From contig CM097887.1 of assembly GCA_044892525.1 (NCBI GenBank), positions 117,840,397-117,904,396 of the forward strand: 64,000 bases of DNA, written 5' to 3'. A program made the position numbers and the translations under genes. The notes under the pieces are model-generated. The model was not told where the DNA came from. It saw only the letters and a list, made by a program, of their open reading frames with translations, and ran no database searches. Source of the stretch: Schmidtea polychroa (lineage: Eukaryota). Positions 35,191 through 64,000 of the stretch are shown one piece after another (position 1 is the first letter of the stretch; each line of letters begins with the position of its first letter).

Positions 35191-35911
35191 AATTCCAAAA
35201 TCGCAATCTCATTGGACAACGCAAAAGGCGAAATCAACATGATTTGCTATCAGAATGAGAAACAGATTCAAAGGTTTTGTGATTCAGTATTGAAAATCAA
35301 TTTTCTTTTCACTGAAGATTTAGAGAAAATTGATAAATTATTTGAAAAATCAATTTTAGATATTGAAAACAACGATTTAATTTACAACTACGCACCGAAT
35401 GTTATGGGAAATGCGAATGATATTTTAAGTTATATAATATTGTTGTGTTGGGCCAAGCTCCGAAGGTGTTGGAAAAGCGAACCGAAGAAGGGATAGAGTA
35501 AAATAAAATAAAAACATATAAAAAATACGAGAAACATAAGAGGAAACAAATTAAATATCCAGCAAAGAAATTAGAAAAACTAAATAAAATAACAAAACCT
35601 CTAAAGGAAAAATAAGACAAGAGGGAAGGCACCTAATAAACGACAGTAAAAGAAAAAATAAAATAGCAGAAAATCTAAGAAAAATGAAGAAAAACAAAAT
35701 AAAAAATCATCCATAAGGCTAATTAAAACAAAAAAAAAATGAAGTTACAATAAAATAGCAACAAAACCACAGGAAAAACAGATAAAATAATAAAAAATAG
35801 GAAAATAAATAAAATAATAATAAAAATAGGAAAAAGTCATTAAAATACACCTGATTACATTAAAAAACATAAAAATTATAATAAACAATAATATTACATG
35901 CAAGTCGCGCC

Positions 35912-35938
35912 CTGATTGGACGAAAAGTAATATATAAA
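35912..35938 (+). promoter_or_regulatory. candidate LTR promoter (inverted CCAAT plus TATA)
   Basis: CTGATTGG followed by TATATAAA at 35931-35938, after an A-rich U3-like stretch. Repeated in the 3' LTR (~62157-62183). Confidence 0.45.
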
Positions 35939-38206
35939 GAGCGACAAAAATCTGTAGAGTATCATTCTAACCCGAAACTCTACAGGAAAACTAGGAACAA
36001 TTCACAAGCACAGATTATTGAACCATATTCATTCATCGGATAACATATACCTTTAACGGAGATCGAATTCAGTTCAGTCGAACGAGTCTATCTAAAGAAA
36101 ACTTATATTATTTTGATCTAACACCTTTCGGAGATTTTTGGTAAATTATGTTTTAGATTTTAGCATGATGATTTAAATATTTATTATGAATTTAAAAAGT
36201 CGTTTATAATTCAATAAATTTCATATTTTAAACAAAGGTGTTGCTTTCTCTCTATGATGCTGGCGACGGCGTCCTCTGGAATCCGGGTATGATGCAGTTG
36301 AGTTTTTCGAACGTCCTACGGAGAGGAAATTTACGAATACGAACTCGAGAAATTGAAGTGATAGAACCAGCCCAGGATCCATATGAATTTAGAAACTAAA
36401 GTGATTACTTAATGAATACGAGATTTATGCTAACCAGAGTCATCATGCCCGGATTTCAAATGTCGTGGTCGCCAGGTGAACATTTATTTAATTGATTTTC
36501 TCATAATTCCATTATTTCTATATTGATTTACTAAATAATTAAATTGTATTATTGCACATTTGTTGAGAATGGAGTTGCGATGTGACGGGTCGAGTCGTCC
36601 TTCACACCGGTCCAAGAGCAGTGGGCAGAGATGCGTACTGCCTTGGGTGGGTTGTGAGGAGCGAGGAAACCATGCGAGATGTAACAAATCAAGTAAAGAA
36701 TTCTTTCATCGAGTGTAATCCAACCATCTTAGTCGTCGAAAACCATCCATTGTAGAAACTTCTGAGTGACATAGTTTGAGACAACGATACCTTGGGAACT
36801 CCCAGAGGCATACCATTAGATCTATCATCAGCCTTGTATCCGATCACGTCATCAATAATCTTTGATTTAGGGCCTTATTCGTCTTGCATTGAGAGAAGTG
36901 CCTGTTAGAACGTCTGTCGGAAGGAGTTATTAATTTCGAGTTTCTACGAGAGATTCTCTGTACTAAGCCCATTTCGTATCTTACAATCTGAAGGTGCTTT
37001 GGAAGCTACACCGCCGGGAAGTTAGCGAATAGATCCATCGTCTTGCTTATCGTCGACTCCGGGGAAACTTAATCACCAACCGACAACTAGTCGCTGTCAT
37101 CGATAATAGCCGTTTTAGAGATGAGTGTAAACATCTCTGGATAGTAGATTTGAATACTGGCTATGAGCCCGAAGGAAACGGTCGCCAGTGACATTGGGTG
37201 AGCGTAGTAGACTGCCGGGAAATCGGTTGATAAGATATCTGAAGCCTCAGTCACGAGCGAACGAGTTGACCGTTTTTATCTCAAAACCAATTAGTGGAGC
37301 AAAATCTAAATATGGAATCGATCTTATCTAGTAGATTCGCAATTTAACCCACGCAATTAGATTCACGAGTTTTCTATGACCCCCTCTTAGATTTCCACTT
37401 GTCTAGAAACTCAGCCAGCAATGTCATGTCTAGTGTGCAGATAGTAGATAAATTTATCTCACAATTGCGTACTGGTAAAATAGGAGATGGTTAGACTACA
37501 TGTCCAATCCGACAGCGAGATTACGTCATACTGAATAGTAGAATTTCTACCTAGTCCACGAACACAGGCTGACAATAAATCAGACAATGCATGTATACGA
37601 ACAGACCAGACGACATCTGCTAGCCTACATCCAGGGTAAAACTAATACACCACTACTCACAAACAAGCGTCGTTATGACGACATTTATGGCGCAAGATTT
37701 AAGATGATCAAATAGTAAATTTTGATAAGACTTAAATTGAATTTTGTGGTTCTTTTATGAAGCCGATCACGACGTTTAAAACCCCAATAGTCACCAGTCA
37801 TACCGAACTATGCTTTTATGACCCCACGAGTGCGAAATTTTACGAATATAGTAGGGTGGGGAGTGGGAATGCTATTACTAGGGAAGGATAATTATAATAA
37901 ATTCGACTGTGGTAAATTAATAAAAGCACATTACATAAAAATGGCCAATTTCGGAAAATAAACATAAAATCAAAGTTAGGGTAAATGAATTGTTTTTTTT
38001 TTTTGTGGAATTCCGTTTTCTTTTTCTCTATCAGTATGGATGCTTGCAGACAAATGAGTGTGAATGTTGACCAGCGATATGGGTAGGTGGGTCATTGTCG
38101 AGTAGTATGATTGAAAATAGGGTAAAACTTGCAGTCAAAAATTTGGAAACGACACTCCAATGAACTTTTTTAAACTCTACGATTAACAAAACGTCTTGAT
38201 CTTTAG

Positions 38207-38968
38207 ATGCCTGCTTCAACCGCTACGAACAAGGATCTTCGTCCATGCTTCTCCTGCGCAGATAAAACCGCAGACATAGCACAACTCCACTTATATATCG
38301 GGGCACTGAAAAAGAGAATTGATCTCTATGAAGGCACGTGGTTCTCCCCGCCACAGATGAAGGAGGAGCGCAGTAAAATTCTTCGGTTGGAACATTGCCG
38401 GGACAGCCTCCTAGAGGAGAGTCGCTGTCAAAGACTGACGATCAAGGCGCAATCGGAAGCCCTCCACAAGGTCTACACGGAGGCAGAATTGGCCAAACGG
38501 GTACGAGAATTTCCCGTCTTGGAGGCCAGTAATGTTTTTCCAATTCACCACCAAAGTACTTCCACCGCTACAACCAGTTGTCTGGGGCACGGCTCCTATC
38601 TGCCGCCTGTTCCAGCACCGGCCTTATATAGTTATCAGCCGCCGGTAGGTGGTCCATCCGCCCCTATCTTGGCTCCAGTTTTAGTGACATCAGTTACAGC
38701 ACCCGATGCGGACAACCATCAACCACAGCGTAAAAGAAAACGGCCGACCCGAGCCGCCAAAAATCAAAGACGTCGAGATGCAATCGCGGCTCTTGAGGCG
38801 TCGTTATCTGTGGCTAAGTCTTCTCTGGAGAAGTTATCGTCACTACCCTCTACCCCCACCAAGGAGATATTCCGGGTGATCTCGCCCGAAGGGGTCCAGC
38901 TCGTGCGAGACCGTCGGTTACCGGTCGACATCGACGAGATGATCGCCGAAGGGGAAGTTTTCCCATAA
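38207..38968 (+). CDS. 253-aa ORF inside the LTR; N-terminal helical/coiled-coil, Pro-rich middle, basic patch (RKRKRPTR); function unknown
   Basis: Long GC-richer ORF within the inferred LTR, with a pyrimidine-rich splice acceptor upstream (TTTTCTCTATCAG, ~38034). Confidence 0.6.
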   Translation: MPASTATNKDLRPCFSCADKTADIAQLHLYIGALKKRIDLYEGTWFSPPQMKEERSKILRLEHCRDSLLEESRCQRLTIKAQSEALHKVYTEAELAKRVREFPVLEASNVFPIHHQSTSTATTSCLGHGSYLPPVPAPALYSYQPPVGGPSAPILAPVLVTSVTAPDADNHQPQRKRKRPTRAAKNQRRRDAIAALEASLSVAKSSLEKLSSLPSTPTKEIFRVISPEGVQLVRDRRLPVDIDEMIAEGEVFP

Positions 38969-39507
38969 TTGGACGTGTCGTTGACCCATCTCTCATTCCA
39001 CGCGATCAAGCTCGACAATCTCTATAAATGACTTAGATGATGCGTGTTTTGTACTCTCCTACGTGTTGTGATCGGAAATTTGTGTTCATATGTATCTTCA
39101 ATTTCATTAATATAATCATAGTGTTCGTTGTGTTGTCCTGTAAAAGTTATAGAGTGATGAGTTATGACTGGATAAATGAATTGGAATGACCATTGGAGAA
39201 TGTGGGTCGTCCCCTTGGACCAGGGTCGTACCAAGAATGCATGACGAGTATGGGTAAGACCTTCTTAGGCACCGGGGAACCTGAACTGAGAGTGGGTCCG
39301 TAGTAGTCCTAAGGCAGGGGCTCACCTGCGGATCAACTCCGACCCGTGTGAGCAGCACCAACGTGGGTAGATCATCACGGGCTCACATGAGGGAATATTT
39401 GTAAATCATGCGGGTTATGTGGGGGAAGGGCCCCGAGCTAAAAGAACATGATGCCAGCCGCACTACGTATGTCCGTTTGACTCCTCCCATATACCCAACA
39501 TGATTTT

Positions 39508-40007: not shown

Positions 40008-40487
40008 ATGTCGGAAGCTAGAAAACATCTACAACAACTAAGCAGATTCATCGACATAGAAAACGATTCCCTAAAGACGTTAAGAGAAAAACTGCAACAA
40101 ATAGAGACCCTAGTACAACAACGCCACGATGCACCTCTGATATCAAAACAAAATTATTTAACCAATAAACTGGGAGCAACAAACACCGATACCGACTTGT
40201 CTACCCATTACCAATGGATGCAGAAACGACTCGACGACCCCGCTCTGAACATCGAATATGTGAGAATACGCGAACAAGTAAAAACTTTGTCTCAGAGAAT
40301 ACGAACATCGATAGTAGAGAAAGCAGCGGCCTTAAGAACTTGTAACATTTGTAAGACGCGACCTGCCAAAATTCTAATTCTACCTTGTGGACACCTTAGC
40401 CATTGTGACGAATGTGCCGTCGGTTTAACGCATTGTTCTCTATGTGTATGTGTGATAAAGGAGAAGCACACGATTTACTTCAGTTAG
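40008..40487 (+). CDS. coiled-coil plus C-terminal IAP/MDM-type RING finger (no BIR domain)
   Basis: CNICKTRPAKILILPCGHLSHCDECAVGLTHCSLCVCVIKEKHTIYFS: C3HC4 RING with an IAP-like aromatic tail. T-tract plus AG acceptor 2 nt before the ATG. Confidence 0.85.
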   Translation: MSEARKHLQQLSRFIDIENDSLKTLREKLQQIETLVQQRHDAPLISKQNYLTNKLGATNTDTDLSTHYQWMQKRLDDPALNIEYVRIREQVKTLSQRIRTSIVEKAAALRTCNICKTRPAKILILPCGHLSHCDECAVGLTHCSLCVCVIKEKHTIYFS

Positions 40488-41062: not shown

Positions 41063-41398
41063 ATTAAGGTCGAGCTGCTGGAAAAGTCCAGCCGGTCAGG
41101 GAAATTAAAACTGAGCTGTGAAAAGTCCAGCCAGTTCGGAGATGATGAAGATTGAGCTGTGAATAGTGCCAGCCAGTCGTAAGATCGAGTTGTTGAATAG
41201 TCCAACCGGTCAGGGGAAGAAGATTGAGCTGTGAATAGTGCCAGCCAGTCGTAAGATCGAGTTGTTGAATAGTCCAACCGGTCAGGGGAAGAAGATTGAG
41301 CTGTGAATAGTGCCAGCCAGTCGTAAGATCGAGTTGTTGAATAGTCCAACCGGTCAGGAGAAGAAGATTGAGCTGTTGAAAAGTGCCAGCCAGTCGTA
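41063..41398. repeat. tandem repeat, 72-bp unit (two ~36-bp subunits), ~3.5 near-perfect copies plus degenerate copies
   Basis: GAAGATTGAGCTGT recurs at 41147, 41219, 41291 and 41363. Confidence 0.95.
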
Positions 41399-42782: not shown

Positions 42783-45700
42783 ATGACGAATGTGGTAAAA
42801 ACCGACGAATATAAAGAAAAATTTAGAGGCGAACCATTCAACGGGAATGCGAACAAGTTGACGACGTTCATAACAAATTTTGAAGTCTATATCGATGTGT
42901 GTGGATGGACATCAGAAGCAATTAGCAAACGGATGCCGTTGTTTTTATGTGATAGCGCATTAGAAGTGTATCTAGAAGCAAAAGAAAGAAATACGAAGTT
43001 AGACAATTGGGAAAGCATCAAAACATTTTTGAGAAAAACATTCGGAGCCAGCAAACCAATAAATCAAGCCCTAGGAGAATTAGCGAGTAGAAAACAAAGA
43101 GCAAATGAATCCATAACGTTGTATGCGAGTGAATTGCGAAGATTGGCAAAGAAGGCCATGAACGGAAACTTGCCGGAGGAAAATTTAATTGGTTATTTCA
43201 TAGAAGGACTGCGCCGAGAAGAGGTAAGGGCCTCGGTGGGATGTCAAATGTGTAAAACACTAGAGGAAGCCATAGATTGGGCCACGAGATGCGAACTCCA
43301 CCTCCCGGCACAAATGAATGTCATGCAAGAGGAAGGAAGAATCGCAACAGCAACGGTAAAAACTGAAAATGGAGAGAACAGCAATCATGAACCAAAAATG
43401 AATCAGTTTATACCCGGTGCGCATCAAATTTTCAAACCACCGCAAGGACGATCAAATGGGAATAACAGTGAACGCAACAACCCGAACAATGGGAATAATT
43501 TTAATAATCGACGAAACACGAACGATAACAAACAATGCCGAACATGCGGTAAACCAGGACATTGGGATAGAGATTGTTACCGAAACGCAAATTGCAATAG
43601 GTGTGGACGACGAGGACACACGGAAAATATATGCCAATTGAGAGGATGTTTTAACTGCGGTCAACCAGGTCATATCTCAAGAGACTGTCGAGAAAGGAGC
43701 CAACAACAACGACCACCACAACGAAATAATAACTATGCACCAAATCCGCAACGACAAAGTAATCCTAGTGAGGGAAAGCAAATGAATGTGATGCAAGAAA
43801 TTTCACAAATGAAGCAGATGATGCAACAAATGATGAGACCGAGACAAGAACCAGTAGCACAACAAACTCAGAATATACGTATGATGAGGAGCACCGAGAA
43901 TCTTAACAACTATGAAGTGCAACAACATGCACAAGAATGGCAAAGACTACAAGCTGAAGAAGAGAGGATAAAAAGAGAGCGAATTCAGCAGCGACAAGAA
44001 CAACCATTACGAATAAATATGATGAGAATGGTAAGGGAGATAAAAGAGCAATATTGTTACAATTACGGTAAAAATCCAAGAGTTGTACCTATGAGCGAAC
44101 CAGAGAAACCGAAAGAAACAATTCCAGCAACAAAAAAGGAAAATTCAACAACATCGCTAAAAGGAAATCAGAGAATTCAGAAAATATTTTGGAAAAAGAT
44201 AAAAGATAAAATCGAAAGAGAAAATGAGAAAACGAAAACAGAAGCAGAAGCAGAAAATAACGAAAATGAAAAACAGAGTAATCATCTAAATCATGATATG
44301 ATACGAGAATTAGACTCAGAGGAGCTAACGATACTCGAGAACAAAAAATTAAAGAAAGTACCAAGAATGAGAAATTTACGAATTAATATGATGAGGACAA
44401 CAAAGAAGGTGTTGTCAACAGATGACGATGAGGATTATGTGAGTAGCCTTGGTGGAGAAATGTTACAGTTAAATGAAAATATCGACCAACTCAGAGAAAA
44501 GATCGGAGCAGATGAGGATGAAAGTGAAAGCGACGTGACAAGCGAAAGCGAAGACGAGAATATCGAAATAAAATTGAGAAAAGAAAGAGAAGAAGCAATA
44601 AAACAAGTAAAGGAAATACTTCCAGTGGTGGTAAGAAACCAGGAATTCATTGACATCATACCATACAGACGCTTCACACAAAGGATAATGAAACTAGAAA
44701 GAAACGAAAAAGATCTAATACCAAACGAGGAAAAAGCGATAATAAAGAAGTATATGGAAAAAATGAAACAAGCGGAGACAACACGCTATGTAATAAAAAT
44801 CGGAACAAGCAAAGGACTCGAGAGAATATGGATAAAAAATGCAGTTACAGACGATCTTTTCGATTGGATAAGAGAACATTTGGGCAGCTCGAGAAAGAAA
44901 GAATACCTGTATCAATATCAAGGAGAACAAATCAAACCAGACATGCACCTAATAGATGCATTGATCTGGCCAGGAGAAACTCAAATATTGAAATTGCATA
45001 AAGAGAAGCAACCAGCGAATATTCACGAATGGGCTAAAGACGCCAAGGCCGAGTATGACTTTAACATCAAGCTGAAGCTGGAACAAATAAAACAATGCAC
45101 CTTGCGACGAAATCTAGATAAATTAATCAAACAAATCCAAGAACAAGTTGAAGATAACTGGGATTTGCTCATAACAAGACGAACTGCAGACATGCATGAA
45201 CTAATGAGCCGACTGCGAGATACAGAACTGCTCAGGATGAGCGATTGGAGAACCATAAATTTGATCCACAAATACGGAAGATTAAAGGAAACGCAACCGC
45301 AGAAATTAGAAATAACCATATGGTTACCAAATGAGGAGAAACGACGAATAAAGATGAGTAATCAGAGTACGGTGGATGACTTAGTAACCAAGATAAACCA
45401 AGAGATAACGGAAAAAGTACGAAGCGAGAGCAGCGATGGTATGATAGATGACGTAGTCATGATGTACGATAAAATAATACTACGGGCTGAAGACGATACC
45501 TCGTTAAGTGAAACGGGAATGTGGGATAATCATCAGATCATCAGAATATTGCCCATGGACGAATTCCGAACAAGAGATGTAACATACCAGAAAGAAATAC
45601 GAGACCGGATGAAAACGCTATACCAAAAATCAGTAGAGATAATCGAAATTTATCAACAATGGCTGAAAGAAAAAGAGCTTCAAGGAAAATTAAAGAAACT

Positions 45701-47708
45701 GAGTACCAGATCCTGCAGACGAACCCCATGGGAAAGGATGTGGAATGCGGAAAACAAAGAATGGGAAATCAGGAAAGGGATTTTCGTGGAAACAGACATT
45801 CGTGAGATAGAAAGCGAATCAGAAGAAGAGGAAGATGAACCTCCAAAATACGAAGAGGACGAAATAGAATCGACATCGAACGACGAAAGCGAAACGGATG
45901 TTACATCAGAAAGTGAAACGGAAACCAGGCATATTCATGCGATGAGAAAGAAGGAACGCGAATACGCCGACATAGACGGGGAAGAGGCAAAAGAAGCGAG
46001 AGAACGAGAAGAGAAGGAAAGGTATAAACAATTAGGTGATATCTTAGCAATGGGAGCAAAAAATCAAAAACGTCAAGTAATAACATTGGCTAACATCATC
46101 CTAAAGACATCAGAGAATATCCACAATCTAAGAGAAATGGCGAAAGCGATTGAAGAATACCGACAATATAACGAATGGTACCCAGAACAGCTAGAACAAA
46201 TTATTAGGAAATGGAGAAACCAAGAATGGGCACAAGATACCCAGGAAAGGTATCGTATCCGAGTCAAGTATCCCGACAAAAGCATTGAGGATATAGAAGT
46301 ACATCCAACAACAAAGATCAGAGAGTTAAAAAAGAAATTAGCATACGAAACTCCATTTCACCTACAACTATTCGGAAAATCGTTGGACGATAATGCAGAT
46401 GTCGGAATAACACCCATGAGATTGGGGGAGATCAATGTATTGACAATGGCAGAAACATTGGGAAAACCGATTAAAAGGAAGAGCAAATCCAGTAAACCTA
46501 CGAAAGGTAGCTTGAGTACACCAAGCCCTAACAAAGTGGCGAGTAAATCGAATGAAACCGAGGAAATCGAGGAAATTATATTGGAAGACAGCGATGAAGG
46601 AGCGGGAGAAAGATCACCAATTCTGGTAAGATGGCCGACCGGAGCCGAAATATGGACAACGAGCCAACCGTCAACTAGCTATCAACAACCACATAAACTG
46701 AACATAGAGGAAATTATCGATAATACAACAGAAACCGAAACTGACGAACAATTCCAACGACAGAAAGGACCAACGAAAGCAACACCGGAAGGCCAAACGG
46801 ACAAAATAATAGAAGAATGGAACGAATGGCTGAGAAACAACGATAGCTCATTGCCCAGAACAGATAATGAGAGAAACCCGAAGTATGAAACGACAAGAGA
46901 AGCCGGAACAATGATGGAAAAACGGGCAAAAGGAAGACCTAGGAAGCAAGGAGAAAAACCAGAATTCAAAACTAGAAAACAACTGAAACAAGAACAAGGA
47001 CAAGTCAGATTAGAGAAACTGGATAAAATAGTGTGGGATCTAAAAGAGGCCCAGCCAACAATCGAAAGAGGCGAAAAATGGATACGAGAGCTAGTAAAAG
47101 ATATGCTAATAATAACGAACACACAATTGCGACGGTTATGGCAACGAAAAGTAGCAAGCGTAGATGCCAGACAGCTATGGAATACAATATCCGGAATAAT
47201 TCCGAAATTAATCAAAGAGAAGACAAAAACCACTAAAACCGATTGGGAAGAGACAAGAAGAGTAATTGAACAATTAACTTTAAACGCAAACGACGACGAA
47301 CATCATTTAGTAGTATTAACGTATCTAATGTACAATTTGATGGGAGTAGCAGCAAGGAAAATACCTAACAAACAATTCGCAAATCATGTAGAAATGACCG
47401 TTACAATCATTGAAAATACAATCGAACCACATATTATCCGCGCCGGTGGGTGGAAAAGACTCATACAAGCACCACGAAAAAACGAGCAAGAGAGATCAAT
47501 GCAAATTCGGTTGAAGAAATTACTAAACGAGCTAGAATGGGAATTGCCATTGAAAGACCCAGCCAGCAGAAAAGCGTCGATTAATTCACTAATGATGACC
47601 ATGATGATATGGATGCTCTGCACCAGTGGAGCCGCGGGATTTACTATTTACGACTGTGACAATTCGATAATAGGAGAAAGATACTCCCTGAGAGATATAG
47701 AGGAATGA
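42783..47708 (+). CDS. gag: extended Gag: capsid, 3 CCHC knuckles, 3 ubiquitin-like domains, AT-hook, Bcl-2-like domain, env signal peptide
   Basis: Capsid-like FNGNANKLTTFITNFE...MPLFLCDSALEVY; CRTCGKPGHWDRDC, CNRCGRRGHTENIC, CFNCGQPGHISRDC; KGRPRK; RELVKDML...HIIRAGGW. Ends in the hydrophobic LMMTMMIWMLCTSGAAG followed by FTIYDC. Confidence 0.9.
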   Translation: MTNVVKTDEYKEKFRGEPFNGNANKLTTFITNFEVYIDVCGWTSEAISKRMPLFLCDSALEVYLEAKERNTKLDNWESIKTFLRKTFGASKPINQALGELASRKQRANESITLYASELRRLAKKAMNGNLPEENLIGYFIEGLRREEVRASVGCQMCKTLEEAIDWATRCELHLPAQMNVMQEEGRIATATVKTENGENSNHEPKMNQFIPGAHQIFKPPQGRSNGNNSERNNPNNGNNFNNRRNTNDNKQCRTCGKPGHWDRDCYRNANCNRCGRRGHTENICQLRGCFNCGQPGHISRDCRERSQQQRPPQRNNNYAPNPQRQSNPSEGKQMNVMQEISQMKQMMQQMMRPRQEPVAQQTQNIRMMRSTENLNNYEVQQHAQEWQRLQAEEERIKRERIQQRQEQPLRINMMRMVREIKEQYCYNYGKNPRVVPMSEPEKPKETIPATKKENSTTSLKGNQRIQKIFWKKIKDKIERENEKTKTEAEAENNENEKQSNHLNHDMIRELDSEELTILENKKLKKVPRMRNLRINMMRTTKKVLSTDDDEDYVSSLGGEMLQLNENIDQLREKIGADEDESESDVTSESEDENIEIKLRKEREEAIKQVKEILPVVVRNQEFIDIIPYRRFTQRIMKLERNEKDLIPNEEKAIIKKYMEKMKQAETTRYVIKIGTSKGLERIWIKNAVTDDLFDWIREHLGSSRKKEYLYQYQGEQIKPDMHLIDALIWPGETQILKLHKEKQPANIHEWAKDAKAEYDFNIKLKLEQIKQCTLRRNLDKLIKQIQEQVEDNWDLLITRRTADMHELMSRLRDTELLRMSDWRTINLIHKYGRLKETQPQKLEITIWLPNEEKRRIKMSNQSTVDDLVTKINQEITEKVRSESSDGMIDDVVMMYDKIILRAEDDTSLSETGMWDNHQIIRILPMDEFRTRDVTYQKEIRDRMKTLYQKSVEIIEIYQQWLKEKELQGKLKKLSTRSCRRTPWERMWNAENKEWEIRKGIFVETDIREIESESEEEEDEPPKYEEDEIESTSNDESETDVTSESETETRHIHAMRKKEREYADIDGEEAKEAREREEKERYKQLGDILAMGAKNQKRQVITLANIILKTSENIHNLREMAKAIEEYRQYNEWYPEQLEQIIRKWRNQEWAQDTQERYRIRVKYPDKSIEDIEVHPTTKIRELKKKLAYETPFHLQLFGKSLDDNADVGITPMRLGEINVLTMAETLGKPIKRKSKSSKPTKGSLSTPSPNKVASKSNETEEIEEIILEDSDEGAGERSPILVRWPTGAEIWTTSQPSTSYQQPHKLNIEEIIDNTTETETDEQFQRQKGPTKATPEGQTDKIIEEWNEWLRNNDSSLPRTDNERNPKYETTREAGTMMEKRAKGRPRKQGEKPEFKTRKQLKQEQGQVRLEKLDKIVWDLKEAQPTIERGEKWIRELVKDMLIITNTQLRRLWQRKVASVDARQLWNTISGIIPKLIKEKTKTTKTDWEETRRVIEQLTLNANDDEHHLVVLTYLMYNLMGVAARKIPNKQFANHVEMTVTIIENTIEPHIIRAGGWKRLIQAPRKNEQERSMQIRLKKLLNELEWELPLKDPASRKASINSLMMTMMIWMLCTSGAAGFTIYDCDNSIIGERYSLRDIEE

Positions 47709-49480
47709 GACAGGCATCTCCGAATAAATTAGATATAGTAAAAAAGAAAGTCTCCTATCACGTATACCAAGAATCAGATTTCATTAGAACACAAGCTAGA
47801 GAATGCGTAGTATCGAAGAAAGTGTTGGCATATTACTGTGGACAATACTCATATTCAACCCTTATATTACCGGGATTAGATAAAGAAATAGTACCTATAC
47901 AACGGGAAGACTGTAAAGAACTTTTTAGAACCGGAGCGATGAGAATCAGGGATGGAGTAACAATACACGGACAAAGCGGAATGATCAAGACGGAAAGTAT
48001 CTATGTAGCCGGACGAGTAAAATCAACTGATGGATCATGTAACGGAGGCACATATACGATCAGAGGAGAAGTGATCTCGGGAGTAGTAGTAATTGAGTCC
48101 TACACAGTGGAGTTGAAGGAATACGAAGCACAATTCGACGCAAACAACTATCAAATGAAAACCAACCCAGCATGCAGAGCTACGGAAAACGTGTGTAGAA
48201 CGGGAATTTCGACTATAATATATGAAGCTAACACCCAAAAATGCCGACTGCAATTGTTAAAAAGTGCTCTATTCAATGAAGTAAAAGGAGAAATTTACGA
48301 AAACGAGGATGACGATGAAGAGAATGGAAACGTAAGGATGCGAAATGGGAAACCAGTCCCACCATCCCCCAAAGAAAAGAGACTCACAACCCAAAAAACA
48401 CCAACGGCATTAATTACAGATGATCCAGACGTCGGCATGAGATTCATTAGAGAAAAAGAGACCACCAAATGTGACAGCATAGTATATCGGACGAACTACG
48501 CAGGTATCTACATGTCAAGGCAAGTAATAGACCGAGCAGTGGGAAAGGTAGCAACAGAGGACGTAAAATTGTACCTGTACGCTAATAACAAAATGGACTT
48601 TTTATTTCATCGAGGACAAACGACAATGCAAAAAGTGTATTACGATCTTATACAAAATGACTGTTCATTGAATAAAGAGATACTAAAAACAAAATTAGCT
48701 ATCGCAATAACACACCCAGATAACACAATGCCATCACTCCCGTTACCGGATGGACATTTTGGTAGAATGGTGGGAGAGGTAATGTATACATATGCATGTA
48801 CCAAGACATTTGCGCGACTGCCAAGAAAGCCCACAATTCCACCAGGGAAATGTGCAAACGAATTAGAAATTAGCTACAAAGGGCGGAACAGATTCGTTCA
48901 ACCAGTCACTTGAATTATGAACCCAATTGGATTTTATCCGAACATCTTTAACTGTTCAAATGCATACGGACCGTTATATGAAAAACCCGATGGGAAATGG
49001 ATAATGTTACCGGTAAAAACCGAAGTACAAGAACCTAAAAAGTTTGGATTAATAGAACTCGCAACAGAGCAAGATTTCAAACCAATTGATGTGTCAAAAG
49101 CAGGTATGTACTCACCAGAGGATTTAGAAACAGCACGACTAAACGTACTATTCCCAGCAAGGCGAGAATCCATTCTATCAAATATGGTTACCATAACTGG
49201 GGGAACGAATTTCCAGTCAGGCCCCAATTACGAACTATTATTGTCACCCGATCATTTTCAACAAGCCACGTCGAACATGATGAAAGCAATGTGGGGAAGA
49301 TTTCTAGTGTTCGGTCAAATGATGGCAGGAATATTGGGAATCATCTTAATTATTCAGATCGTCAGGGTGATATTGACTCAAATGTTAGCGTGTTTTGATA
49401 TCTATAAGAGAGAAAAGAAAGTAAATTGGAAGTTGATAGTAGGTTTTCTACCATTTTTGGCAAAAACAATGGTGTTGCAC
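47577..49480 (+). CDS. env: chuvirus-like (class III, gB-related) envelope glycoprotein, split by a 1-nt deletion (~47708) and a TGA (48911-48913)
   Basis: Signal peptide 47577-47639, then YDC...YSL.D...C, ECVVSKKVLAYYCG, GSCNGG, NDCSLNKEIL, GEVMYTYAC, CANELEI...FVQPVT(R)IM, LFPARRE, then a TM segment ~49300-49390. This Cys pattern matches Jingchuvirales G as I recall it. Confidence 0.85.
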
Positions 49481-49959: not shown

Positions 49960-52900
49960 AGGCGCGGCAGTAACAGTCATGATCCAAATCAACGGGAAAG
50001 AGACAAGCGCAATGATAGATACCGGAGCAAATGTATCAGCAATAGCAATCAACCAAATACCCAGTAAATGTTGGAAAGACATCGAACAAACAACTATCCA
50101 TATCATCGCATGCAGTAAAGAAACCGTAGACGTAGTAGGAAGATGGTGGACTACGTTAAGATATCAAGATAACGAAATTGAAACGTATCTAGCGGTGATA
50201 CCCAAACTGAGTGAACCATGTATAATCGGAACGGATTTAATGCCGGAATTGTTCAAGGAAGTAGTAATCGATTTAACAACAATGTGTCTAAAAGACAAAA
50301 CGGGTAGAATATGCAAGATGAACGCAATAATTAGATGTCCGGAGAAAATAATTGTACCAGCAAAATCACAAATGATATGTCAAATAAAAGTGGATGCAGG
50401 AATGGAAGGAGAAGTCATTTTTGAGCCAAGCAAATCATTCGAAAAACGACGAGAATTACCATTAGCAAGAGAAATAATAACAATAAATGAAGACGGTGAA
50501 ATACCAATCAACATCACAAATTTCGAGGAAGAAGATAAAATCATATATGAAAATGAAAGATTGGGTAGATTGACACCCATGATAGACATCGAATTACCAA
50601 AAATCACCAACGAAACAACGAAAGCCGACGAATTATGGATAATTGACAGCACCCTGCTAACGGAAAAAGAAAAGGAAAGACTTCAACAATTATTGATAGA
50701 ATATAAAGATATATTCGCAATTTCGGATTTAGATTTGGGAGCATGCGACGTTACATTACACGCAATACCATTAATAGACGAAACTCCAATCGCACTACGT
50801 CCATACAAACTAGCCGAGAAGCAAAAAGAGATAGCCGAAGCAGAAGTACAAAAAATGCTAGATGCACAAGTGATCGAACCAAGTTGTTCGCCATGGCAAT
50901 TTCCAGTAGTCATGGTGAAGAAAAAAGATGGTACTCAGAGATTCTGTATCGATTATCGGAAATTAAATGCAGTAACAAAAAGAGACACATACCCGTTACC
51001 AGACATCAATGAGATGTTACTTATGTTACAGGGGGCCGCATATTTTACATCTTTAGATCTGAAAAGCGGATATTGGCAGATCAAAGTCAAGGAGGAAGAC
51101 AAAGAGAAAACAGCATTCACATTGGGTCGAGATCTATACCAATTCAGGAAAATGCCGTTCGGACTGACCAATGCCCCAGCATCATTCCAGAGATGTATGA
51201 ATTTTGTCACACATGGGATCAAGCAGTGTATGGTATATATTGATGATTTATTAATATATTCAGCAACATTCGAACAACATTTGGAAGATATCAGAAACGT
51301 GTTCGTTCGATTACGACAATGGAAATTGAAACTCAAACCATCAAAGTGTGATTGGGCAAAAGAGAAAGTTACGTTCTTAGGACACATAGTGTCAGCAAAA
51401 GGCAAAGAACCAGATCCAAGAAACATAGAAAAAATAAAAACATGTCCAGCACCAAAAAATGTCACCCAAGTTCAAGAATTTCTCGGATTATGCGGATATT
51501 ATCGAAAATTCATCAAAAACTATGCAGGTATTGCGAAACCAATACAGGACTTAGTGAAAAAGGATATTTCATTTATTTGGGGTGCAGAACAACAAAAAGC
51601 ATTTGAGACATTGCGAGATAAATTAATTGAAGCTCCGATACTAGTACATCCTGATTTCAAGAAACCGTTCTTATTGGCAACAGATGCAAGTGGATATGCA
51701 GCCGGAGCGATATTAGGACAACTGGATGAAGAGGGAAAAGAAAGAGTGATTGGATACTACAATAGAACGTTTAAAAAGCACGAGAAAAACTATTCCGTAA
51801 CCGAGAGAGAAGCGTTAGCAATCATACAAGCGATTAAACATTTTCGATATTTGTTATGGGGACACGAAATATGTATCACAACAGATCACCAACCATTAGT
51901 ATGGCTTGGTCAACACAAAGAAGCTTCAAGTAGATTGATGCGATGGGCAATGCAGTTACAAGAATATTCACCGTTCATAAAATTCAAAGCGGGAAGAGCG
52001 AATGCCAATGCGGATTGTATGTCCAGATTTATCTTTCCAGATTTAGTAGATCACGAAATGCAACGAATATGTCTGATGGTAGCAGAAGATTTAGATTTTT
52101 GCCAATTACGGAAAGACCAACAGGAGGATACAGAGTTGAAACAAATCATTGAATATGTGAAAACAGGGAAAGCAGAGGTATATGAGAAAGATCAAAAATT
52201 GAAGGAGCATATGGATAAACATCGACATCGATATATTATCGAGAAAGACTGGTTGTTGATAATGGATGGAGAAAAAAGACTGATGTGCATTCCCGAGAAT
52301 AGACGTAAAGAGCTGCTAACACAATACCATGACGGAAGACTCGGAGGACATATGTCATCTAAAAAGACGTTGGCACGAATGAAACAAAAGTATTTTTGGC
52401 CTACATTGACCGAGGATGTAACGGAATGGGTGAAAAATTGCATAACTTGCGCAACCAGAAAAAACACGGGAACAAAATGAAAGGCACCATTAAAGCCAAT
52501 GCCAGTACCAGCAGAACCAATGACCATGATATCAATGGACGTGGTCGGTCCACTACCAGAATCAGATAGAGGAAATATATATATATTGGTAATCACAGAC
52601 TATTTGACGAAATTCCCCGAAGCATTCGCTATGGCAGATCAGAAAGCAAGAACAATCGCAAAAATACTAGTAGAGGAGATATGCTGTCGATATGGAACAC
52701 CAAAACAGATATTAACTGATCAAGGAACAAATTTCATGAGCGAAATAATGAGCGAAGTCACCAACTACTTCAAGATCGCAAAATTAAGAACATCACCGTA
52801 CCATCCACAAACTAATGGTATGACGGAAAGATTCAATGGAACACTGATTCAAATGTTATCAAATTATGTCGATCGTCATCAACGCGATTGGGACGAGTAT

Positions 52901-53439: not shown

Positions 53440-56400
53440 GATAAACGAACCAACAGGTAACCGATTGGGGTTACAACCATCAGAAGCCGAGAAAATCATA
53501 AAAGAAGTGAAAGCTAAAATGCCCGGATGGGCAGAAGACAGATTAGATTTTGAGATATTGGGAGGTCTGCTAACAATGATCGAAAATTATGCAAACCGAG
53601 AAAGAACACACCCATTACTCAGGGTAGTAAAAAGTCAATGGCCTATATTATTTACGATCACAGACCATTATGGAGATACACCGCTGCACAAACTTTTAAA
53701 GGTCGGGAATAATGAACAAATACTGGAAACGATCGAAGCATTTCGCGATTGTAACGTTTCAACAGATCAAGAAAATAACCAAGGTTACACTCCACTAATG
53801 ATAGCAGCCAATCGGGATAAAGCTAAAGATATTATCATCGCATTACTTGAAACTGGGTCAAAGATAACTACACAAGACCACAACCAGAAAAATGCACTAC
53901 ATCATGCAATCGAAGGGAAAAGTACGGAAGCCTTCATAATCTTAGTAGACCTATTATCATATGAGGATAATAGGGAGATAGGAAACATGTATGACGGGTT
54001 ATTAACTGCAATCAAAGAGAAATTAATAACAATTACTGGAATACTAATTGCATGGAGGAACCCGATCAAAAACGATTATATGGTAGATATAAACGAAACA
54101 TTTACCAAAGGAGAAAATACCTTGATGAGGGAAGCGATGAGAGGACATCACCTATTCGAAATTCCAAATCAACTACTACAACGTGGCATAAAATTTTCAA
54201 ATCACAAAGACGAACAACTAATCAGAAAACGAATTACCAACTTCGAAAAAGCTATATCTCAATTTACCGATAAAGTACAAGTAAAATTTTGGGAAACCGT
54301 GAGTGTATTATATATGATGGAAACTATGAACAACATTCGAGAAAACTACCTAAGTATTATTCAAGTGCTTACGGCGGAAGAACGCATTAACAGTTCAAAC
54401 AAGAAAAAGATAAAAATAAAGAAAGTAAAAACAAGAGAGTCTGAGGAACAAGTCGATCAAATAATAACCGATATAGCAACAACAAGTAAACCAAAGATAA
54501 TAAACTCAGACCAGGAGATAATAATACGCAAAGCCAAAGAGGTGTTCTTTGAAGAAATGCAAGATCTATCCGATAAAGCGATACTAGCAAAAATAGCAAA
54601 AACAGTACACACCTACGCAAGAGACCAGACCACAAATCTAGACATAGAAAAAATAAAAACATTTATACCACTAGCATTCACCTTACCAACAAAAGACTCA
54701 AGAACACCATTACAACAAGCCATTTTAGCAGCAAAAGAAAACAGAGCAATAACCATCATAAGAATCCTTGGAGACTTCGGAGAAGAATCTAATGCAAAAA
54801 ATGAACAAGGAGAAACAGCAATGATGTATGCAGCCATAACAAATATACGCCCGAAAACATTACATATACTACATCGATCGGGATCAAGACTGGACGAAAT
54901 ATCAAACGAAGGAAATTCTACCATGGATTGGGCAACCATACAACCAAACTTGGAAATGATTAGGTTCATTTGTAAAAATGCTACAAGAACTGAGGTAGAA
55001 AATATCTGTAAAAACACGTCACAGTTCCAATGGAACACGATACGGATGAACTTAGAAGCCATGAAGTTATTGCTAACATGGAAAATACCGCAAAGCAATA
55101 AATATGCAATAAATATAAATGAGTTCTACGAAAACGGAGAAAATGCTATGGTTAAAAATACACTAACAAAAGGAGGAACTCCGAAAATCATAATGATCGT
55201 ATTGAACAGAGAAGACCTCAAATTCACGCAAAATCTAAACGAACAAAAGCGGACCGGAAAACATCGCCGTATACAATTGAGAGAACTGGTAAAAGAATGG
55301 AATAGAAAGAGACATGTAGCAACAGGCAGAAAGGAGTTCGAATTCGAAGCAAAATTAGCAAGGAATAGAGTGTTAACGGCATATCACAGATTATTGAACG
55401 ACATAAATGTCGAGGACGACATTTCAAACGATAGCGGGGGAGATAAAGACGACAAAGACGACGATAATAATGAACAAGGTCGAAACGGGAATGGAGAGAA
55501 AGAGAAATCAGAGGAAAATAATCAAGGAAATAACGACTCAGGTATAAAAAAGGAGGAAAATAAACCGGGAAGCCGAACAAAGGAAGAGGAAAAGACGAAT
55601 AATGGGAAACAGAGGGTATGCCCACTTTTTACCAACAAGGAAATGGAGACAAATATGATGGTAATGATACTCATACTAACAATGATAGAAATGATAACAG
55701 CCCACGGTGGAATGGGAACGATAAAAGAGGCCAAGGAAACGGAAAACAAAGACAACAAGGAGAAGGAACTAAAGCAGGAAAAGAAGAAGCAAGTACGAGA
55801 GCAACAATGGGATTTAAAAGAAGAATGGGATCTAAAAGAAAGGTGCATACTAGGAAGATGTATGTCGAGAGCATATCGGAGACTAGTATTAATAAATGAA
55901 GATACAGAACTGATAACGGAAGTAAGAATTCAAGAAGCATATCGGAATCGAGACGGGAAGAGAATAACTAAAGTCAAAGGGAAGGAGGTACACCTGAGAA
56001 AAGGAGGTGAGGTAGTGATAACGCAACTCCAGCCAAGAAAAGAACACAAAGTCTGCATTTCAAGATTAGGACCGGGTGAAGACTGTCTACAATATGTAAC
56101 ACAGCAACAACCTCCAAAAGAATACACAGTATGCATCTGGAGAAACGATACAGCGAGAGAATGTCGACGATACCCTGGGAAAAGAGGGAGGAAAAGAAAA
56201 ATCAATGACGAAAAAGATGAGCAAGGAAAACGCAAGAAAACCGATGAGAAATATCAAGACAATTATGTATCCGAGGAGGAGATGGAGAAAATACAAAGAA
56301 TGGCAAAGGAAGGTATGAACGAGGAAATAGCAAGAATACGAGGAATGATAAAAGGAAATGGCAAAGACGGTAATCTAAAAAACACGGAAGCAATATCAAC

Positions 56401-56656
56401 AATAACGAACAAGGAAAAAGCAGAAATTATAGGCGTAAAACAGATGATGTGGATCAGCGGCATAATAATAACAGGGGCCTTTTTAATCATAACGGGGGGG
56501 ACAATAAAAATAATCAAAGATAGGCGGCATCGCGGAGAACTAGAAATGGCCAGAATAAGAAATTTTCAACATCGTGTAAGACGACCAAGTAATATCAAGC
56601 AGGAACAATGGGTGGAGGCCTGGAATGCTCAGCGCCCTCCAAGCTCACGTATATAG
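53440..56656 (+). CDS. C-terminal extension of the integrase ORF: two ankyrin-repeat modules, then an internal signal peptide, an ectodomain and a TM segment
   Basis: GDTPLH, GYTPLMIAA, QKNALHHA (53670-53960); SRTPLQQA, GETAMMYAA, GNSTMDWA (54700-54975); METNMMVMILILTMIEMITAHG (55643); TM MMWISGIIITGAFLIITGG (56444). Confidence 0.8.
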
Positions 56657-56800: not shown

Positions 56801-57184
56801 TTGAAAAGTATATATAAATTAAGAATGGAACGAATAGGCGAGGAAGTAAATCACAGTACGACAACCGAGGAGATGTGGAAACAACAATGTGCAATGTTAA
56901 CTCAAGTGATTTCGAATTTACAGGAACAAGGACTCGCTGTACAAAGAAGCTTAGTCGAAAGTTTAAATAAAGGCTTCAGTTATGTAAGAATAATCGAAGA
57001 CCAACGAATAAAAATAGAACAAATGCAGCGAGAGATAGACCGAATATCACGATACAGCCAGGTGCAAGAAGAGGAGTTAATAAGAATCGCGGAAGAGATG
57101 GAGCGAGAGGAGATAGAAGACTGGTCAGAATGGTTAACCAGCAGGGAGGAGGGCGGACAAGAGGCCGACTCCTCCAGCCAATAA
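56801..57184 (+). CDS. accessory coiled-coil ORF (likely ATG at 56825)
   Basis: Intact helical, charged ORF bounded by AT-rich spacers. Confidence 0.55.
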   Translation: MKSIYKLRMERIGEEVNHSTTTEEMWKQQCAMLTQVISNLQEQGLAVQRSLVESLNKGFSYVRIIEDQRIKIEQMQREIDRISRYSQVQEEELIRIAEEMEREEIEDWSEWLTSREEGGQEADSSSQ

Positions 57185-57273: not shown

Positions 57274-58640
57274 ATGGATAAGCAACAACGAGAGGAATTC
57301 AAAGAAATTGTTGAACAAGTCAGAAAGTCCACCACAATTCGAATACACAACCATGTAACGTGTGGAATATGCAAGAACTTATTAAGAGAACCTCACCAAA
57401 CCAGATGTGGATGCAGAATGTGCAGAGAATGTGTAGAGGAGGTAATAAAGAAGGGACCACAATGGTGCCCAGTATGCAAAGAAACAATGATAACAAGTTT
57501 GGGAGATACAAACGAAGATAAAGCAGCTGTAAAAGATATGATGAATGCAAACCTAGGATGCAAAAACACCCCATGTAATTGGCGAGGAGTGATATGGGAA
57601 GTGAGGCAACATATGGAGCAATGTGAATATAAAATCAGTCAATGCAAACGTTGCCAAGAAGAGATTAAAGTCAATGAAGAAGCAGAACATCAAAGTCGAT
57701 GCGAAGAAAGACTGGAGAAATGTGAGTATTGCGGAGAAACCGACACCTGGAAAAAACTAATCAGTCAACATCACAACATACAAGAGGAGAAAGTGTGCGC
57801 AGAATTCAGAGGAGAATGCCCCAACAAATGCGATAAACCCGGAGTAATAAAACTCGCTCAACATCTGAAAGAATGTGAAAGGAAAAAGATAAGGTGTGTG
57901 TTAGGAAAATGGGGATGTCAGAAACAATTACACCGAGGGGAATTACCCCAACACACGCGGAAATATGGTCAACGGTATTACAAGAAAACGAAAGGAAAAC
58001 CGAAAACTTAGAAAGAGAAATAGTCTCGCTAAAAGCGTTGGTAAAAGAACTATTGGAAGAAAAGGAAGCATTCGAAGAGGCGAGAACAAGCACAAAGATA
58101 CAAACAGATCTAGTAGAAACTAGCAACATTATGGTGAAAGAACTACATCAAAAAGTAAGCGAATTAAACCTCAACGAATTAATACCAACGGCTCCATACA
58201 TATGGAAGATAACGGGAGTAAAAGAGAAGATGCAGAGAGCGAGAAATGGAAAGGATACAACATTACTAAGTCCAGCATTCTACTCATGGAAAAACGGGTA
58301 TAAAATGAAAATGAAAGCATACCCCAATGGGGATGGAAGTGCATACGGAACGCATTTCTCAGTATTCTTCTTGATATGCAAGGGGCTATACGACGAGTTA
58401 ATAGAATGGCCATTCAAAGCAAAAATAGACCTCGCAATGATGAACTATCAAAGTATACATGAACAGAGTTTCCATACAGCGGGAAACCTCGTATGTTACC
58501 AAAGGCCCTTGGAAGAAGAAGGATCAGCAACCGGAGCACCGAACTTCATCCTACAGCGGAAAGTAGAAGACATGACGAAAAACGACACCATATACATAAA
58601 AATAGCGGTGAGGCGAGACGGGAAGAGTAGGACTGAGTAG
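57274..58640 (+). CDS. TRAF: intronless TRAF homolog (RING, TRAF zinc fingers, coiled coil, MATH), frameshifted at ~57950
   Basis: CGICKNLLREPHQTRCGCRMCRECV...CPVC; CKNTPCNWRG...HMEQC; CPNKC; YIWKI...SPAFYS..GYKMKMKAYPNGDG...THFSVFF...YDELIEWPF. The two ORFs join at a CA-repeat slip. Confidence 0.92.
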
Positions 58641-58816: not shown

Positions 58817-59893
58817 ATGCGACGTCAAGTTAATAATATCATTGTTCAGATCAAGATGACACAAGAAGGAACTGAAGCCCCAAACCACGAAACCAAAGTC
58901 AATAAAATCCATAAGGGAAAATGGGTCAAAGTAATGTTACAATTGACGAACCAGACCCGCAACCACCTCGAAGAGGCCAGGGAATACGAGAATAACAAAT
59001 ATCAGTGGTTAGTAAACAATTTAAGAGCCGAAGCAGAAGCATGCAAAAGAGCCTCTAAGTGGGCATCATTGGAAAACACTCGCCAAGAAGCGCACAGCCA
59101 CTATTTAAAACAGTTAGTGCAGGAAGCACGGAAACGATTGACGGACGAAAACACAAAACGAGAAGCAGAAAAACAAAAGGAAGGAAGGAAAATGAATCAC
59201 CTATTGGCAGAAGCCCGAAACTGGAAGCGACAGAACAAAGAGATGAAAAAAGAAATGAAAGAATTGCCTATGAGATTAGAATACGAAAGCGAACAAGGCA
59301 AATGGGAGGAAAATCTGGTCATAAGAGAAGAACTGAAACGGCTCAGAAAGATTGCGGCCCGAAGCCAAACATGGCAGACCAAAGCCATGGAATTTGAAAG
59401 ACATCTAGCCATGAAAATCTCCATAAGGGAGCACGAGAATGCCGCAATGGAAGAACTGATACTTCAACAGTCAGAACGACTCGTGGAACTGGTAAATAAG
59501 GTCGCAGAACTAGAACGAGATGTCAACGGATACCAAGGAGCTCTGGAGCAGAGAAATATGGTACTGGCGGGGAAAAACAAAAAGTTAGAAAACGAAAGGA
59601 AAATGTATAACGAAAATCTCAAAAATCTGGAGATAGAGATCAAGAAATGGGAAAACGGCGAAAAAGCGGAAGAGCTAGAAAAACAGATAGAGGTAAGAGA
59701 CGATGAAACCAGGTATCTAACATACCTGTTGGACGAGGAACTTAACGTGTCAAGAGCACTAAGAGACGAAGTGCAAGAACTTAGAGCGCAGATTCCCCGG
59801 TACTACATCCCATTTGATCCCATCGCACTCCAATTACAAACGTCAGTAGAAAGCGATGAGGGATATGTAGGCCAGGAAGAGACCTTTGTATAA
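58817..59893 (+). CDS. accessory 358-aa coiled-coil protein
   Basis: Long intact ORF with continuous E/K/R/L heptad-like composition. No family recognised. Confidence 0.7.
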   Translation: MRRQVNNIIVQIKMTQEGTEAPNHETKVNKIHKGKWVKVMLQLTNQTRNHLEEAREYENNKYQWLVNNLRAEAEACKRASKWASLENTRQEAHSHYLKQLVQEARKRLTDENTKREAEKQKEGRKMNHLLAEARNWKRQNKEMKKEMKELPMRLEYESEQGKWEENLVIREELKRLRKIAARSQTWQTKAMEFERHLAMKISIREHENAAMEELILQQSERLVELVNKVAELERDVNGYQGALEQRNMVLAGKNKKLENERKMYNENLKNLEIEIKKWENGEKAEELEKQIEVRDDETRYLTYLLDEELNVSRALRDEVQELRAQIPRYYIPFDPIALQLQTSVESDEGYVGQEETFV

Positions 59894-61691: not shown

Positions 61692-64000
61692 TGTTGGGCC
61701 AAGCTCCGAAGGTGTTGGAAAAGCGAACCGAAGAAGGGATAGAGTAAAATAAAATAAAAACATATAAAAAATACGAGAAACATAAGAGGAAACAAATTAA
61801 ATATCCAGCAAAGAAATTAGAAAAACTAAATAAAATAACAAAACCTCTAAAGGAAAAATAAGACAAGAGGGAAGGCACCTAATAAACGACAGTAAAAGAA
61901 AAAATAAAATAGCAGAAAATCTAAGAAAAATGAAGAAAAACAAAATAAAAAATCATCCATAAGGCTAATTAAAACAAAAAAAAATGAAGTTACAATAAAA
62001 TAGCAACAAAACCACAGGAAAAACAGATAAAATAATAAAAAATAGGAAAATAAATAAAATAATAATAAAAATAGGAAAAAGTCATTAAAATACACCTGAT
62101 TACATTAAAAAACATAAAAATTATAATAAACAATAATATTACATGCAAGTCGCGTCCTGATTGGACGAAAAGTAATATATAAAGAGCGACAAAAATCTGT
62201 AGAGTATCATTCTAACCCGAAACTCTACAGGTAAAATTTTATCCTTTATATCATCATTCTAACCCGAAACTCTACAGGAAAACTAGGAACAATTCACAAG
62301 CACAGATTATTGAACCATATTCATTCATCGGATAACATATACCTTTAACGGAGATCGAATTCAGTTCAGTCGAACGAGTCTATCTAAAGAAAACTTATAT
62401 TATTTTGATCTAACACCTTTCGGAGATTTTTGGTAAATTATGTTTTAGATTTTAGCATGATGATTTAAATATTTATTATGAATTTAAAAAGTCGTTTATA
62501 ATTCAATAAATTTCATATTTTAAACAAAGGTGTTGCTTTCTCTCTATGATGCTGGCGACGGCGTCCTCTGGAATCCGGGTATGATGCAGTTGAGTTTTTC
62601 GAACGTCCTACGGAGAGGAAATTTACGAATACGAACTCGAGAAATTGAAGTGATAGAACCAGCCCAGGATCCATATGAATTTAGAAACTAAAGTGATTAC
62701 TTAATGAATACGAGATTTATGCTAACCAGAGTCATCATGCCCGGATTTCAAATGTCGTGGTCGCCAGGTGAACATTTATTTAATTGATTTTCTCATAATT
62801 CCATTATTTCTATATTGATTTACTAAATAATTAAATTGTATTATTGCACATTTGTTGAGAATGGAGTTGCGATGTGACGGGTCGAGTCGTCCTTCACACC
62901 GGTCCAAGAGCAGTGGGCAGAGATGCGTACTGCCTTGGGTGGGTTGTGAGGAGCGAGGAAACCATGCGAGATGTAACAAATCAAGTAAAGAATTCTTTCA
63001 TCGAGTGTAATCCAACCATCTTAGTCGTCGAAAACCATCCATTGTAGAAACTTCTGAGTGACATAGTTTGAGACAACGATACCTTGGGAACTCCCAGAGG
63101 CATACCATTAGATCTATCATCAGCCTTGTATCCGATCACGTCATCAATAATCTTTGATTTAGGGCCTTATTCGTCTTGCATTGAGAGAAGTGCCTGTTAG
63201 AACGTCTGTCGGAAGGAGTTATTAATTTCGAGTTTCTACGAGAGATTCTCTGTACTAAGCCCATTTCGTATCTTACAATCTGAAGGTGCTTTGGAAGCTA
63301 CACCGCCGGGAAGTTAGCGAATAGATCCATCGTCTTGCTTATCGTCGACTCCGGGGAAACTTAATCACCAACCGACAACTAGTCGCTGTCATCGATAATA
63401 GCCGTTTTAGAGATGAGTGTAAACATCTCTGGATAGTAGATTTGAATACTGGCTATGAGCCCGAAGGAAACGGTCGCCAGTGACATTGGGTGAGCGTAGT
63501 AGACTGCCGGGAAATCGGTTGATAAGATATCTGAAGCCTCAGTCACGAGCGAACGAGTTGACCGTTTTTATCTCAAAACCAATTAGTGGAGCAAAATCTA
63601 AATATGGAATCGATCTTATCTAGTAGATTCGCAATTTAACCCACGCAATTAGATTCACGAGTTTTCTATGACCCCCTCTTAGATTTCCACTTGTCTAGAA
63701 ACTCAGCCAGCAATGTCATGTCTAGTGTGCAGATAGTAGATAAATTTATCTCACAATTGCGTACTGGTAAAATAGGAGATGGTTAGACTACATGTCCAAT
63801 CCGACAGCGAGATTACGTCATACTGAATAGTAGAATTTCTACCTAGTCCACGAACACAGGCTGACAATAAATCAGACAATGCATGTATACGAACAGACCA
63901 GACGACATCTGCTAGCCTACATCCAGGGTAAAACTAATACACCACTACTCACAAACAAGCGTCGTTATGACGACATTTATGGCGCAAGATTTAAGATGAT
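61692..64000 (+). repeat. 3' LTR (truncated by the window end; predicted end ~65,790)
   Basis: Near-identical to 35446-37708. Differences seen by eye: one C/T substitution (35908 vs ~62155), one A-run length change, and a 47-nt insertion (62231-62277). Confidence 0.95.

Follow-up and report, generated by a model that had tools for sequence, protein, structure and literature searches.

In this study, which was based on a 64,000-nucleotide stretch of DNA from Schmidtea polychroa (hereafter the window), we analysed a domain at 47067..47477 (+) that lies inside the giant polyprotein of a Burro-type retroelement, directly before the signal of env. Profile searches and structure prediction support its homology to the Bcl-2 family and a Bcl-2 fold, and the hydrophobic stretch that leads from it into env probably represents env's internal signal peptide. 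Both the domain and its location ahead of env have already been published for Burro elements (PMC6431247), in which Grohme et al. (2018) noted a BCL2-like motif in Burro-2, -3 and -4. The section on Burro in that paper does not test the fold, analyse the motifs or describe a signal peptide. Our additions are modest: we provide support for the fold, report that the groove motifs are lost and that the domain is under strong purifying selection, and propose a signal-peptide topology. By delimiting the domain, supporting its fold and predicting both a cleavage site and the loss of the canonical BH3 groove, they make the earlier remark testable.

The window element is a Ty3/gypsy provirus of 30,345 bp (~30.3 kb) with LTRs of 4.05 kb and a 4-bp target-site duplication, which we placed as Burro-type by its architecture. 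The 5' LTR (35446..39500, +; 4,055 bp, TG...CA) has the 4-bp duplication directly before it, and the 3' LTR (61692..64000, +) continues past the end of the window as far as a point equivalent to 65790. The two LTRs share 99.9% identity over 3,540 nt, from which we conclude that the insertion is young; over 546 nt their identity was 99.5%. The window element resembles the giant gypsy-like Burro/GYPSM1 elements (PMC6431247) in being ~30 kb long and flanked by LTRs, in having a single polyprotein of ~4,800 aa with a CCHC Gag, and in its ankyrins and MATH/TRAF. As was described there, a ubiquitin-like domain precedes BCL2, and env continues the frame from BCL2 towards the protease. The window element differs from them in that no BIR was found in it and that TRAF is a separate downstream gene.

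The main parts of the element, all on the + strand, begin with an accessory RING-finger ORF (40008..40487; PF13920, E 4e-8). In the polyprotein, the Gag capsid motif and CCHC zinc knuckles (42936..43691; PF03732, E 9e-10 and PF00098, E 8e-12) are followed by a weak ubiquitin/SUMO-like domain (46257..46361; PF00240, E 0.064, below the cut-off), for which the same weak match was found in the related proteins P0006 and P0008. Just upstream of the Bcl-2-like domain there is a motif that we take to be AT-hook-like (46920..46946), which also precedes the domain in other families. The env ectodomain (47640..49318; PF24664, chuvirus-like, E 6e-38 and 1e-21) and its transmembrane segment (49319..49375), the sole strong one before the protease, are followed by Pfam matches to the protease, reverse transcriptase, RNase H and integrase (49976..52807) and, after the integrase in the same frame, by ankyrin repeats (53726..53950; PF12796, E 4e-17). 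A TRAF-like accessory gene with RING, zinc fingers and MATH (57274..58640; PF00097, PF21355 and PF22486) is split into two overlapping frames in the window copy. The Burro cargo of the window element includes ankyrin, MATH/TRAF and, weakly, ubiquitin-like domains, and no BIR (IAP) domain was found in its scanned ORFs. Several further features were observed. The accessory ORFs at 56825-57184, 58817-59893, 60067-60768 and 60824-61348, which follow the polyprotein and precede the 3' LTR, had no convincing Pfam match, and a 253-aa ORF within the LTR (38207-38968), which occurs twice per element, had none. Two hydrophobic segments past the ankyrins near the polyprotein end (55655-55711 and 56426-56515) resemble a second signal and anchor, also with no Pfam match, and in the leader, which connects the LTR to gag, there is a tandem repeat (41144-41376) with a 72-bp spacing.

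The original prediction placed the domain at the end of Gag, which proved to be incorrect. The first part of the polyprotein, from Gag to the start of env (42783..47708, +; a 1,641-aa ORF), closes prematurely at a frame shift, and its stop (47706-47708) is a peculiarity of the broken window copy, being shared by 0/29 other loci examined. The frame was open through all 577 residues to the locus end in 24/30 loci. When the same genome was searched with the domain, 150 of 1,005 candidates were scored (92-100% identical to the domain), and 66 of these 150 were sister copies with an open frame of at least 4,700 aa and no stop in the match. Because the sister frames are open and none of them stops where the window copy does, the domain is internal to one giant polyprotein, the order of which is Gag-ubiquitin-like-Bcl-2-like-env-Pol-ankyrin. 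Apart from the frame shift before 47706-47708, the window copy has in-frame stops in env (48911-48913) and in the protease-integrase region (52478-52480); broken downstream, it could not make env or Pol from the polyprotein frame. Contigs of two runs, the RNA origin of which is only guessed, covered 30/30 bins and 17/30 bins, the latter with 0 over the domain, and showed no joint around the domain or the env start; neither observation has a bearing on expression or splicing.

All of the motifs that had been quoted for the domain were found in frame on the + strand, namely the helix-1 motif (47085-47108), the stretch at the BH1 position (47283-47339), the central hydrophobic helix (47295-47351), the BH2-like stretch (47403-47465, with GGW at 47445-47453) and the hydrophobic stretch (47589-47639). 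A comparison of the trimmed domain with Pfam gave Bcl-2 (PF00452) as the sole match, which was weak (16.8 bits, E 0.011, against a curated cut-off of 31.4 bits). This cut-off was reached by 0/7 retroelement domains, the best of which scored 29.9; the domains of the sister families scored 19-30 Pfam bits, with one lacking a match. A Burro-only profile, which consisted of 14 retroelement rows and excluded the true Bcl-2 proteins, matched Bcl-xL/Bcl-2 in the PDB (best E 3e-4, in an ungapped 70-residue alignment), and the best 60 of 146 matches were all Bcl-xL/Bcl-2. Among 1.84 billion proteins the same profile found 12 matches: env came directly after the domain in six, Gag and a ubiquitin-like domain came before it in one, and three were fragments. 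The remaining two were a stand-alone Bcl-2 (P0013; 46 Pfam bits, above the cut-off) and a repeat-driven false match (P0012), which was discarded as a relative. A single-sequence search of the PDB with the domain gave only one chance match to a ribosomal protein, and a word-indexed protein search with the domain as the query gave no match among longer proteins. The Atlas likewise yielded no usable match. The profile results support a detectable homology to the Bcl-2 family at the level of sequence.

A single-sequence fold model (pLDDT 44.7, no meaningful Foldseek match) was set aside, and an alignment-based model was used instead, for which copies with stops in the stretch (6 loci) had been left out of the alignment beforehand. 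AlphaFold2 on 22 retroelement-type rows gave a pLDDT of 72 and a pTM of 0.70; the model was confident to about residue 160, while the pLDDT fell below 50 beyond it, which makes the model unreliable over the signal region. Eight helices were predicted in the domain. In Foldseek against the PDB, 40/40 matches listed belonged to the Bcl-2 family (best E 0.018, target TM 0.66), with no match reaching an E of 0.001. Against BFVD, the top 11 matches were Bcl-2-like or likely so, with two that were unnamed or carried only an ORF number, and the top viral matches were BALF1, HVS ORF16 and A179L-type proteins. In VIA-align, ranks 1-32 were all of the Bcl-2 fold, the best with a Z of 12.1 and an rmsd of 2.7 over 137 residues, i.e., the whole domain, compared with a Z of 6.2 for the first unrelated row, where a Z below about 13 can reflect an arrangement that is common among helical proteins. 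The best structural matches in VIA-align were pro-survival BH3 complexes, i.e., Hydra HyBcl-2-4, ASFV A179L and Trichoplax trBcl-2L2. The check on which the original prediction was to stand or fall, whether the fold is the Bcl-2 helical bundle, was thus run, and the predicted fold matches Bcl-2 structures; the modelling supports a Bcl-2 fold for the domain at 47067..47477. The domain resembles the divergent viral homologues (BALF1, HVS ORF16, A179L, BHRF1 and the poxvirus M11L, F1L, N1 and A52) in its Bcl-2 bundle, an identity of 7-16% and eroded BH motifs. With the cellular Bcl-2 family (PF00452; Bcl-xL, HyBcl-2-4) it shares the fold over 130-140 residues, the BH2-like GGW, an amphipathic first helix and a central hydrophobic helix, and it differs from that family in lacking NWGR, the BH3 Asp and the first BH2 Trp and in scoring below the Pfam cut-off.

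The absence of NWGR from BH1, noted from the start, extends to 22/22 rows. The BH1 position in the window family, which is among the most eroded families, is acidic-acidic-His, with neither Gly nor Arg, and a Lys/Arg is kept at the BH1 Arg position by many sister lineages. A BH3-type Asp motif was found neither in the window domain nor in helix 2 of 21/22 rows, with one loose match in P0002. The assignment of BH2 was borne out as far as its GGW is concerned, which is kept in 14/14 genome rows; the first Trp, in turn, is His in the window family and Tyr in one other, and is retained elsewhere except in one copy. For BH4, the octamer RELVKDML is present, and its close likeness to Bcl-xL, which the original prediction presumed, is not conserved across the families, in which only the Leu is invariant. 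Because the NWGR and BH3 Asp motifs are missing, canonical BH3 binding by the window domain appears doubtful, and with NWGR in 0/22 rows and no BH3-type Asp in helix 2, a role in cell death cannot be read from the motifs.

Four further families were obtained from the same genome, one via the Bcl-2 profile, two via env and one via BIR, and all of them had the same arrangement as the window element at an identity of 17-33%; in the BIR-bearing family, the Bcl-2-like domain was 32% identical to that of the window. The domain lies directly before the env signal in all 5 families examined in the genome, and the BIR and TRAF cargo vary. We also observed that the BIR family (matches in L087, L090, L094 and G000) has a BIR ORF of 392-393 aa and many copies (150 scored), as was described for Burro1. 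In the tree, for which the metagenome rows were chosen with the same Burro profile, all retroelement rows are separated from the others by a branch with a support of 97/93, and the tree singles out no donor. The Burro profile gave up to 35 bits for small mobile-element Bcl-2 genes compared with 6-14 bits for most host exons. Compared with two copies of a sister subfamily, the dN/dS of the domain was ~0.02, with dS near saturation, and the values for Pol, env and the rest of the polyprotein were equally low. These substitution ratios indicate that the domain is maintained by strong purifying selection and, being low across the whole polyprotein, they point to no specific role.

With guarded confidence, we favour the interpretation that the domain acts non-canonically to dampen the cell-death or immune signalling of the host, a putative role that is suggested by the RING, TRAF and ankyrin cargo and by the BIR of the related family. 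According to PMC13465017, which cites Lee et al. (2026), stem cells are protected from apoptosis by the RING-BIR gene of Burro1. Since this IAP cargo is reported to aid planarian stem-cell survival, a second and more widely kept death-regulator fold is a natural target for study. It is conceivable, if rather unlikely, that the domain no longer has a regulatory role and is a structural, matrix-like tether, which would hold Gag beside env at the ER membrane via the retained signal anchor. The anchored capsid of flaviviruses offers a comparison. Such a function would agree with a place directly before the env signal that is fixed in all 5 families, three of which were found via env or BIR, while BIR and TRAF vary, with the one-to-one production of the Bcl-2-like domain and Gag, with the loss of the groove motifs and with a constraint equal to that of the structural domains. 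However, a fixed position is also expected from one old fusion, to which the well-supported branch would correspond, the BH2 GGW and the whole fold have been retained, and the other cargo suggests host modulation.

The hydrophobic stretch had been described as a tail anchor that doubles as the env signal. The signal function fits the pattern in 11 lineages as well as the topology, whereas the doubling as a tail anchor is only partly supported, given a register that follows env and the position of the segment within the PF24664 N-terminus. In the window family, the likely signal peptide (47559..47639, +) has a basic n-region, a short hydrophobic core and small residues at -3/-1, with a predicted cut after 47639; it is separated from BH2 by an extra linker helix (47481..47543, +), and the linker length differs among the families. 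The criteria were simple pattern counts over the 11 lineages and not the output of a trained predictor. By these counts, the hydrophobic core ends 5-9 residues before the predicted cut in 11/11 lineages, and the cut lies three residues ahead of the conserved YDC motif of env. The -1 residue is small in 10/11 lineages, and -1 and -3 both fit in 9/11, which is the best of 13 offsets; the next-best fits 7/11, and a cut directly before YDC also fits 7/11. The spacing from BH2 to env is variable (48-82 residues) and the distance from the hydrophobic stretch to env is fixed. Furthermore, the PF24664 matches start 18-21 residues before YDC, i.e., inside the hydrophobic stretch, a comparison with free viral glycoprotein N-termini that rests on the Pfam profile. 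The stretch is therefore likely to be the internal signal peptide of env. It stays in register with env and falls within the N-terminal part of the PF24664 profile, so an origin together with env is more likely than one together with Bcl-2. We also considered whether env has a start codon of its own immediately upstream of the stretch and rejected this, as no Met is conserved there across the families. Word-indexed protein searches with env as a single sequence and as an alignment gave no match, and an env profile search for solved structures gave no relative.

The segment might be retained after cleavage as a candidate anchor of the Bcl-2-like domain. In the window family it is weak (best 19-residue KD 1.28), with a short core that contains Asn, Ser and Cys, and owing to this weak hydrophobicity it may not stay in the membrane. 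The best 19-residue KD does not distinguish the retroelement segments (1.0-2.4) from the tails of small Bcl-2-like proteins that stand alone, five of which were measured (1.0-2.3). The segment starts about 48 residues past BH2 in the window family, in contrast to 16-25 in five stand-alone Bcl-2-like proteins. In another interpretation, the one originally proposed, the domain would be a conventional pro-survival protein of the viral type, the groove of which would bind the BH3 of a host Bak/Bax-like protein and which would be tail-anchored by the cleaved signal. F1L and DPV022 are not known to carry NWGR. According to their structure titles, both of these divergent viral proteins were solved with BH3 peptides, the best structural matches of our model are likewise pro-survival BH3 complexes, and many sister lineages have the Lys/Arg at the BH1 Arg position. 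The window family, however, has no Gly or Arg in its acidic-acidic-His sequence, its segment tracks env and not BH2, and the ER signal has no basic residues after the cut, which distinguishes it from mitochondrial tail anchors; we consider this conventional function improbable. A first transmembrane segment that stays uncleaved, or one that is cut again in the membrane and leaves the Bcl-2-like part soluble, would suit the short core with Asn, Ser and Cys, but either is very improbable for the stretch given the -3/-1 pattern conserved in 9/11 lineages, which favours cleavage by signal peptidase.

Between env and the protease, one strong transmembrane segment was found 543-557 residues after YDC in 4/4 families. 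An internal signal peptide is what the topology would need if both Gag and Pol are cytosolic. In our favoured interpretation, a modulator of host signalling, the polyprotein would be inserted co-translationally and threaded twice through the ER membrane, with Gag, the ubiquitin-like and the Bcl-2-like domains on the cytosolic face, the signal spanning the membrane, env in the lumen and, beyond the single transmembrane segment that follows env, Pol again in the cytosol. Signal peptidase would cut after 47639, leaving the Bcl-2-like domain at least transiently membrane-anchored, and from the cytosolic face it could modulate host signalling. Such a two-pass topology, if true, would explain how Gag and Pol are both cytosolic in a Gag-env-Pol polyprotein. 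One may speculate further, although we think it unlikely, that a captured Bcl-2 became the matrix-like end of Gag in a flavivirus-like two-pass polyprotein that is cut by signal peptidase, in which the Bcl-2-fold anchor holds Gag and Pol hangs from the env tail.

This topology can be compared with that of the GAG-ENV-POL errantiviruses with a gB-type env, which occur in Platyhelminthes, Nematoda and Bryozoa (PMC13524379). In that work, env ectodomains of the PF24664 type are assigned to the HSV gB type, and gB-type ectodomains are flanked by a signal peptide or a second transmembrane segment. The window element likewise has env between gag and pol and an ectodomain with an N-terminal signal or first transmembrane segment and a C-terminal one. 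'Bcl' is absent from the main text of the same paper (PMC13524379). A literature search, the scope of which stopped short of supplements and of Grohme et al. (2018), Jurka (2007) and Lee et al. (2026), found no paper that puts forward a shared signal/anchor for Burro. Bcl-2 homologues carried by a mobile element are also known from adintoviruses and Mavericks (PMC8502044). However, the viral and Maverick Bcl-2 are stand-alone genes, while the window domain is internal to a polyprotein, with a hydrophobic segment that leads into env.

Other Bcl-2-like genes were observed in the same search. One of them (L079:4282-4638, -; also L046-L051 and L059-L060) is a stand-alone Bcl-2-like gene that is present in several copies, consists of two parts and has a normal C-terminal tail; it adjoins an integrase-chromodomain gene, which is a Maverick/Polinton-like setting. 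Another small Bcl-2 gene, also multi-copy (32.5 Pfam bits; L080:4778-5233, - and L080:5894-6361, +), is located beside a TBP-like gene (E 2e-14), and its setting is likely another Maverick-type element. Finally, a host Bak/Bax-like gene with a BH3-like helix (L043/L097:9029-9124, +) was found, which is a candidate partner.
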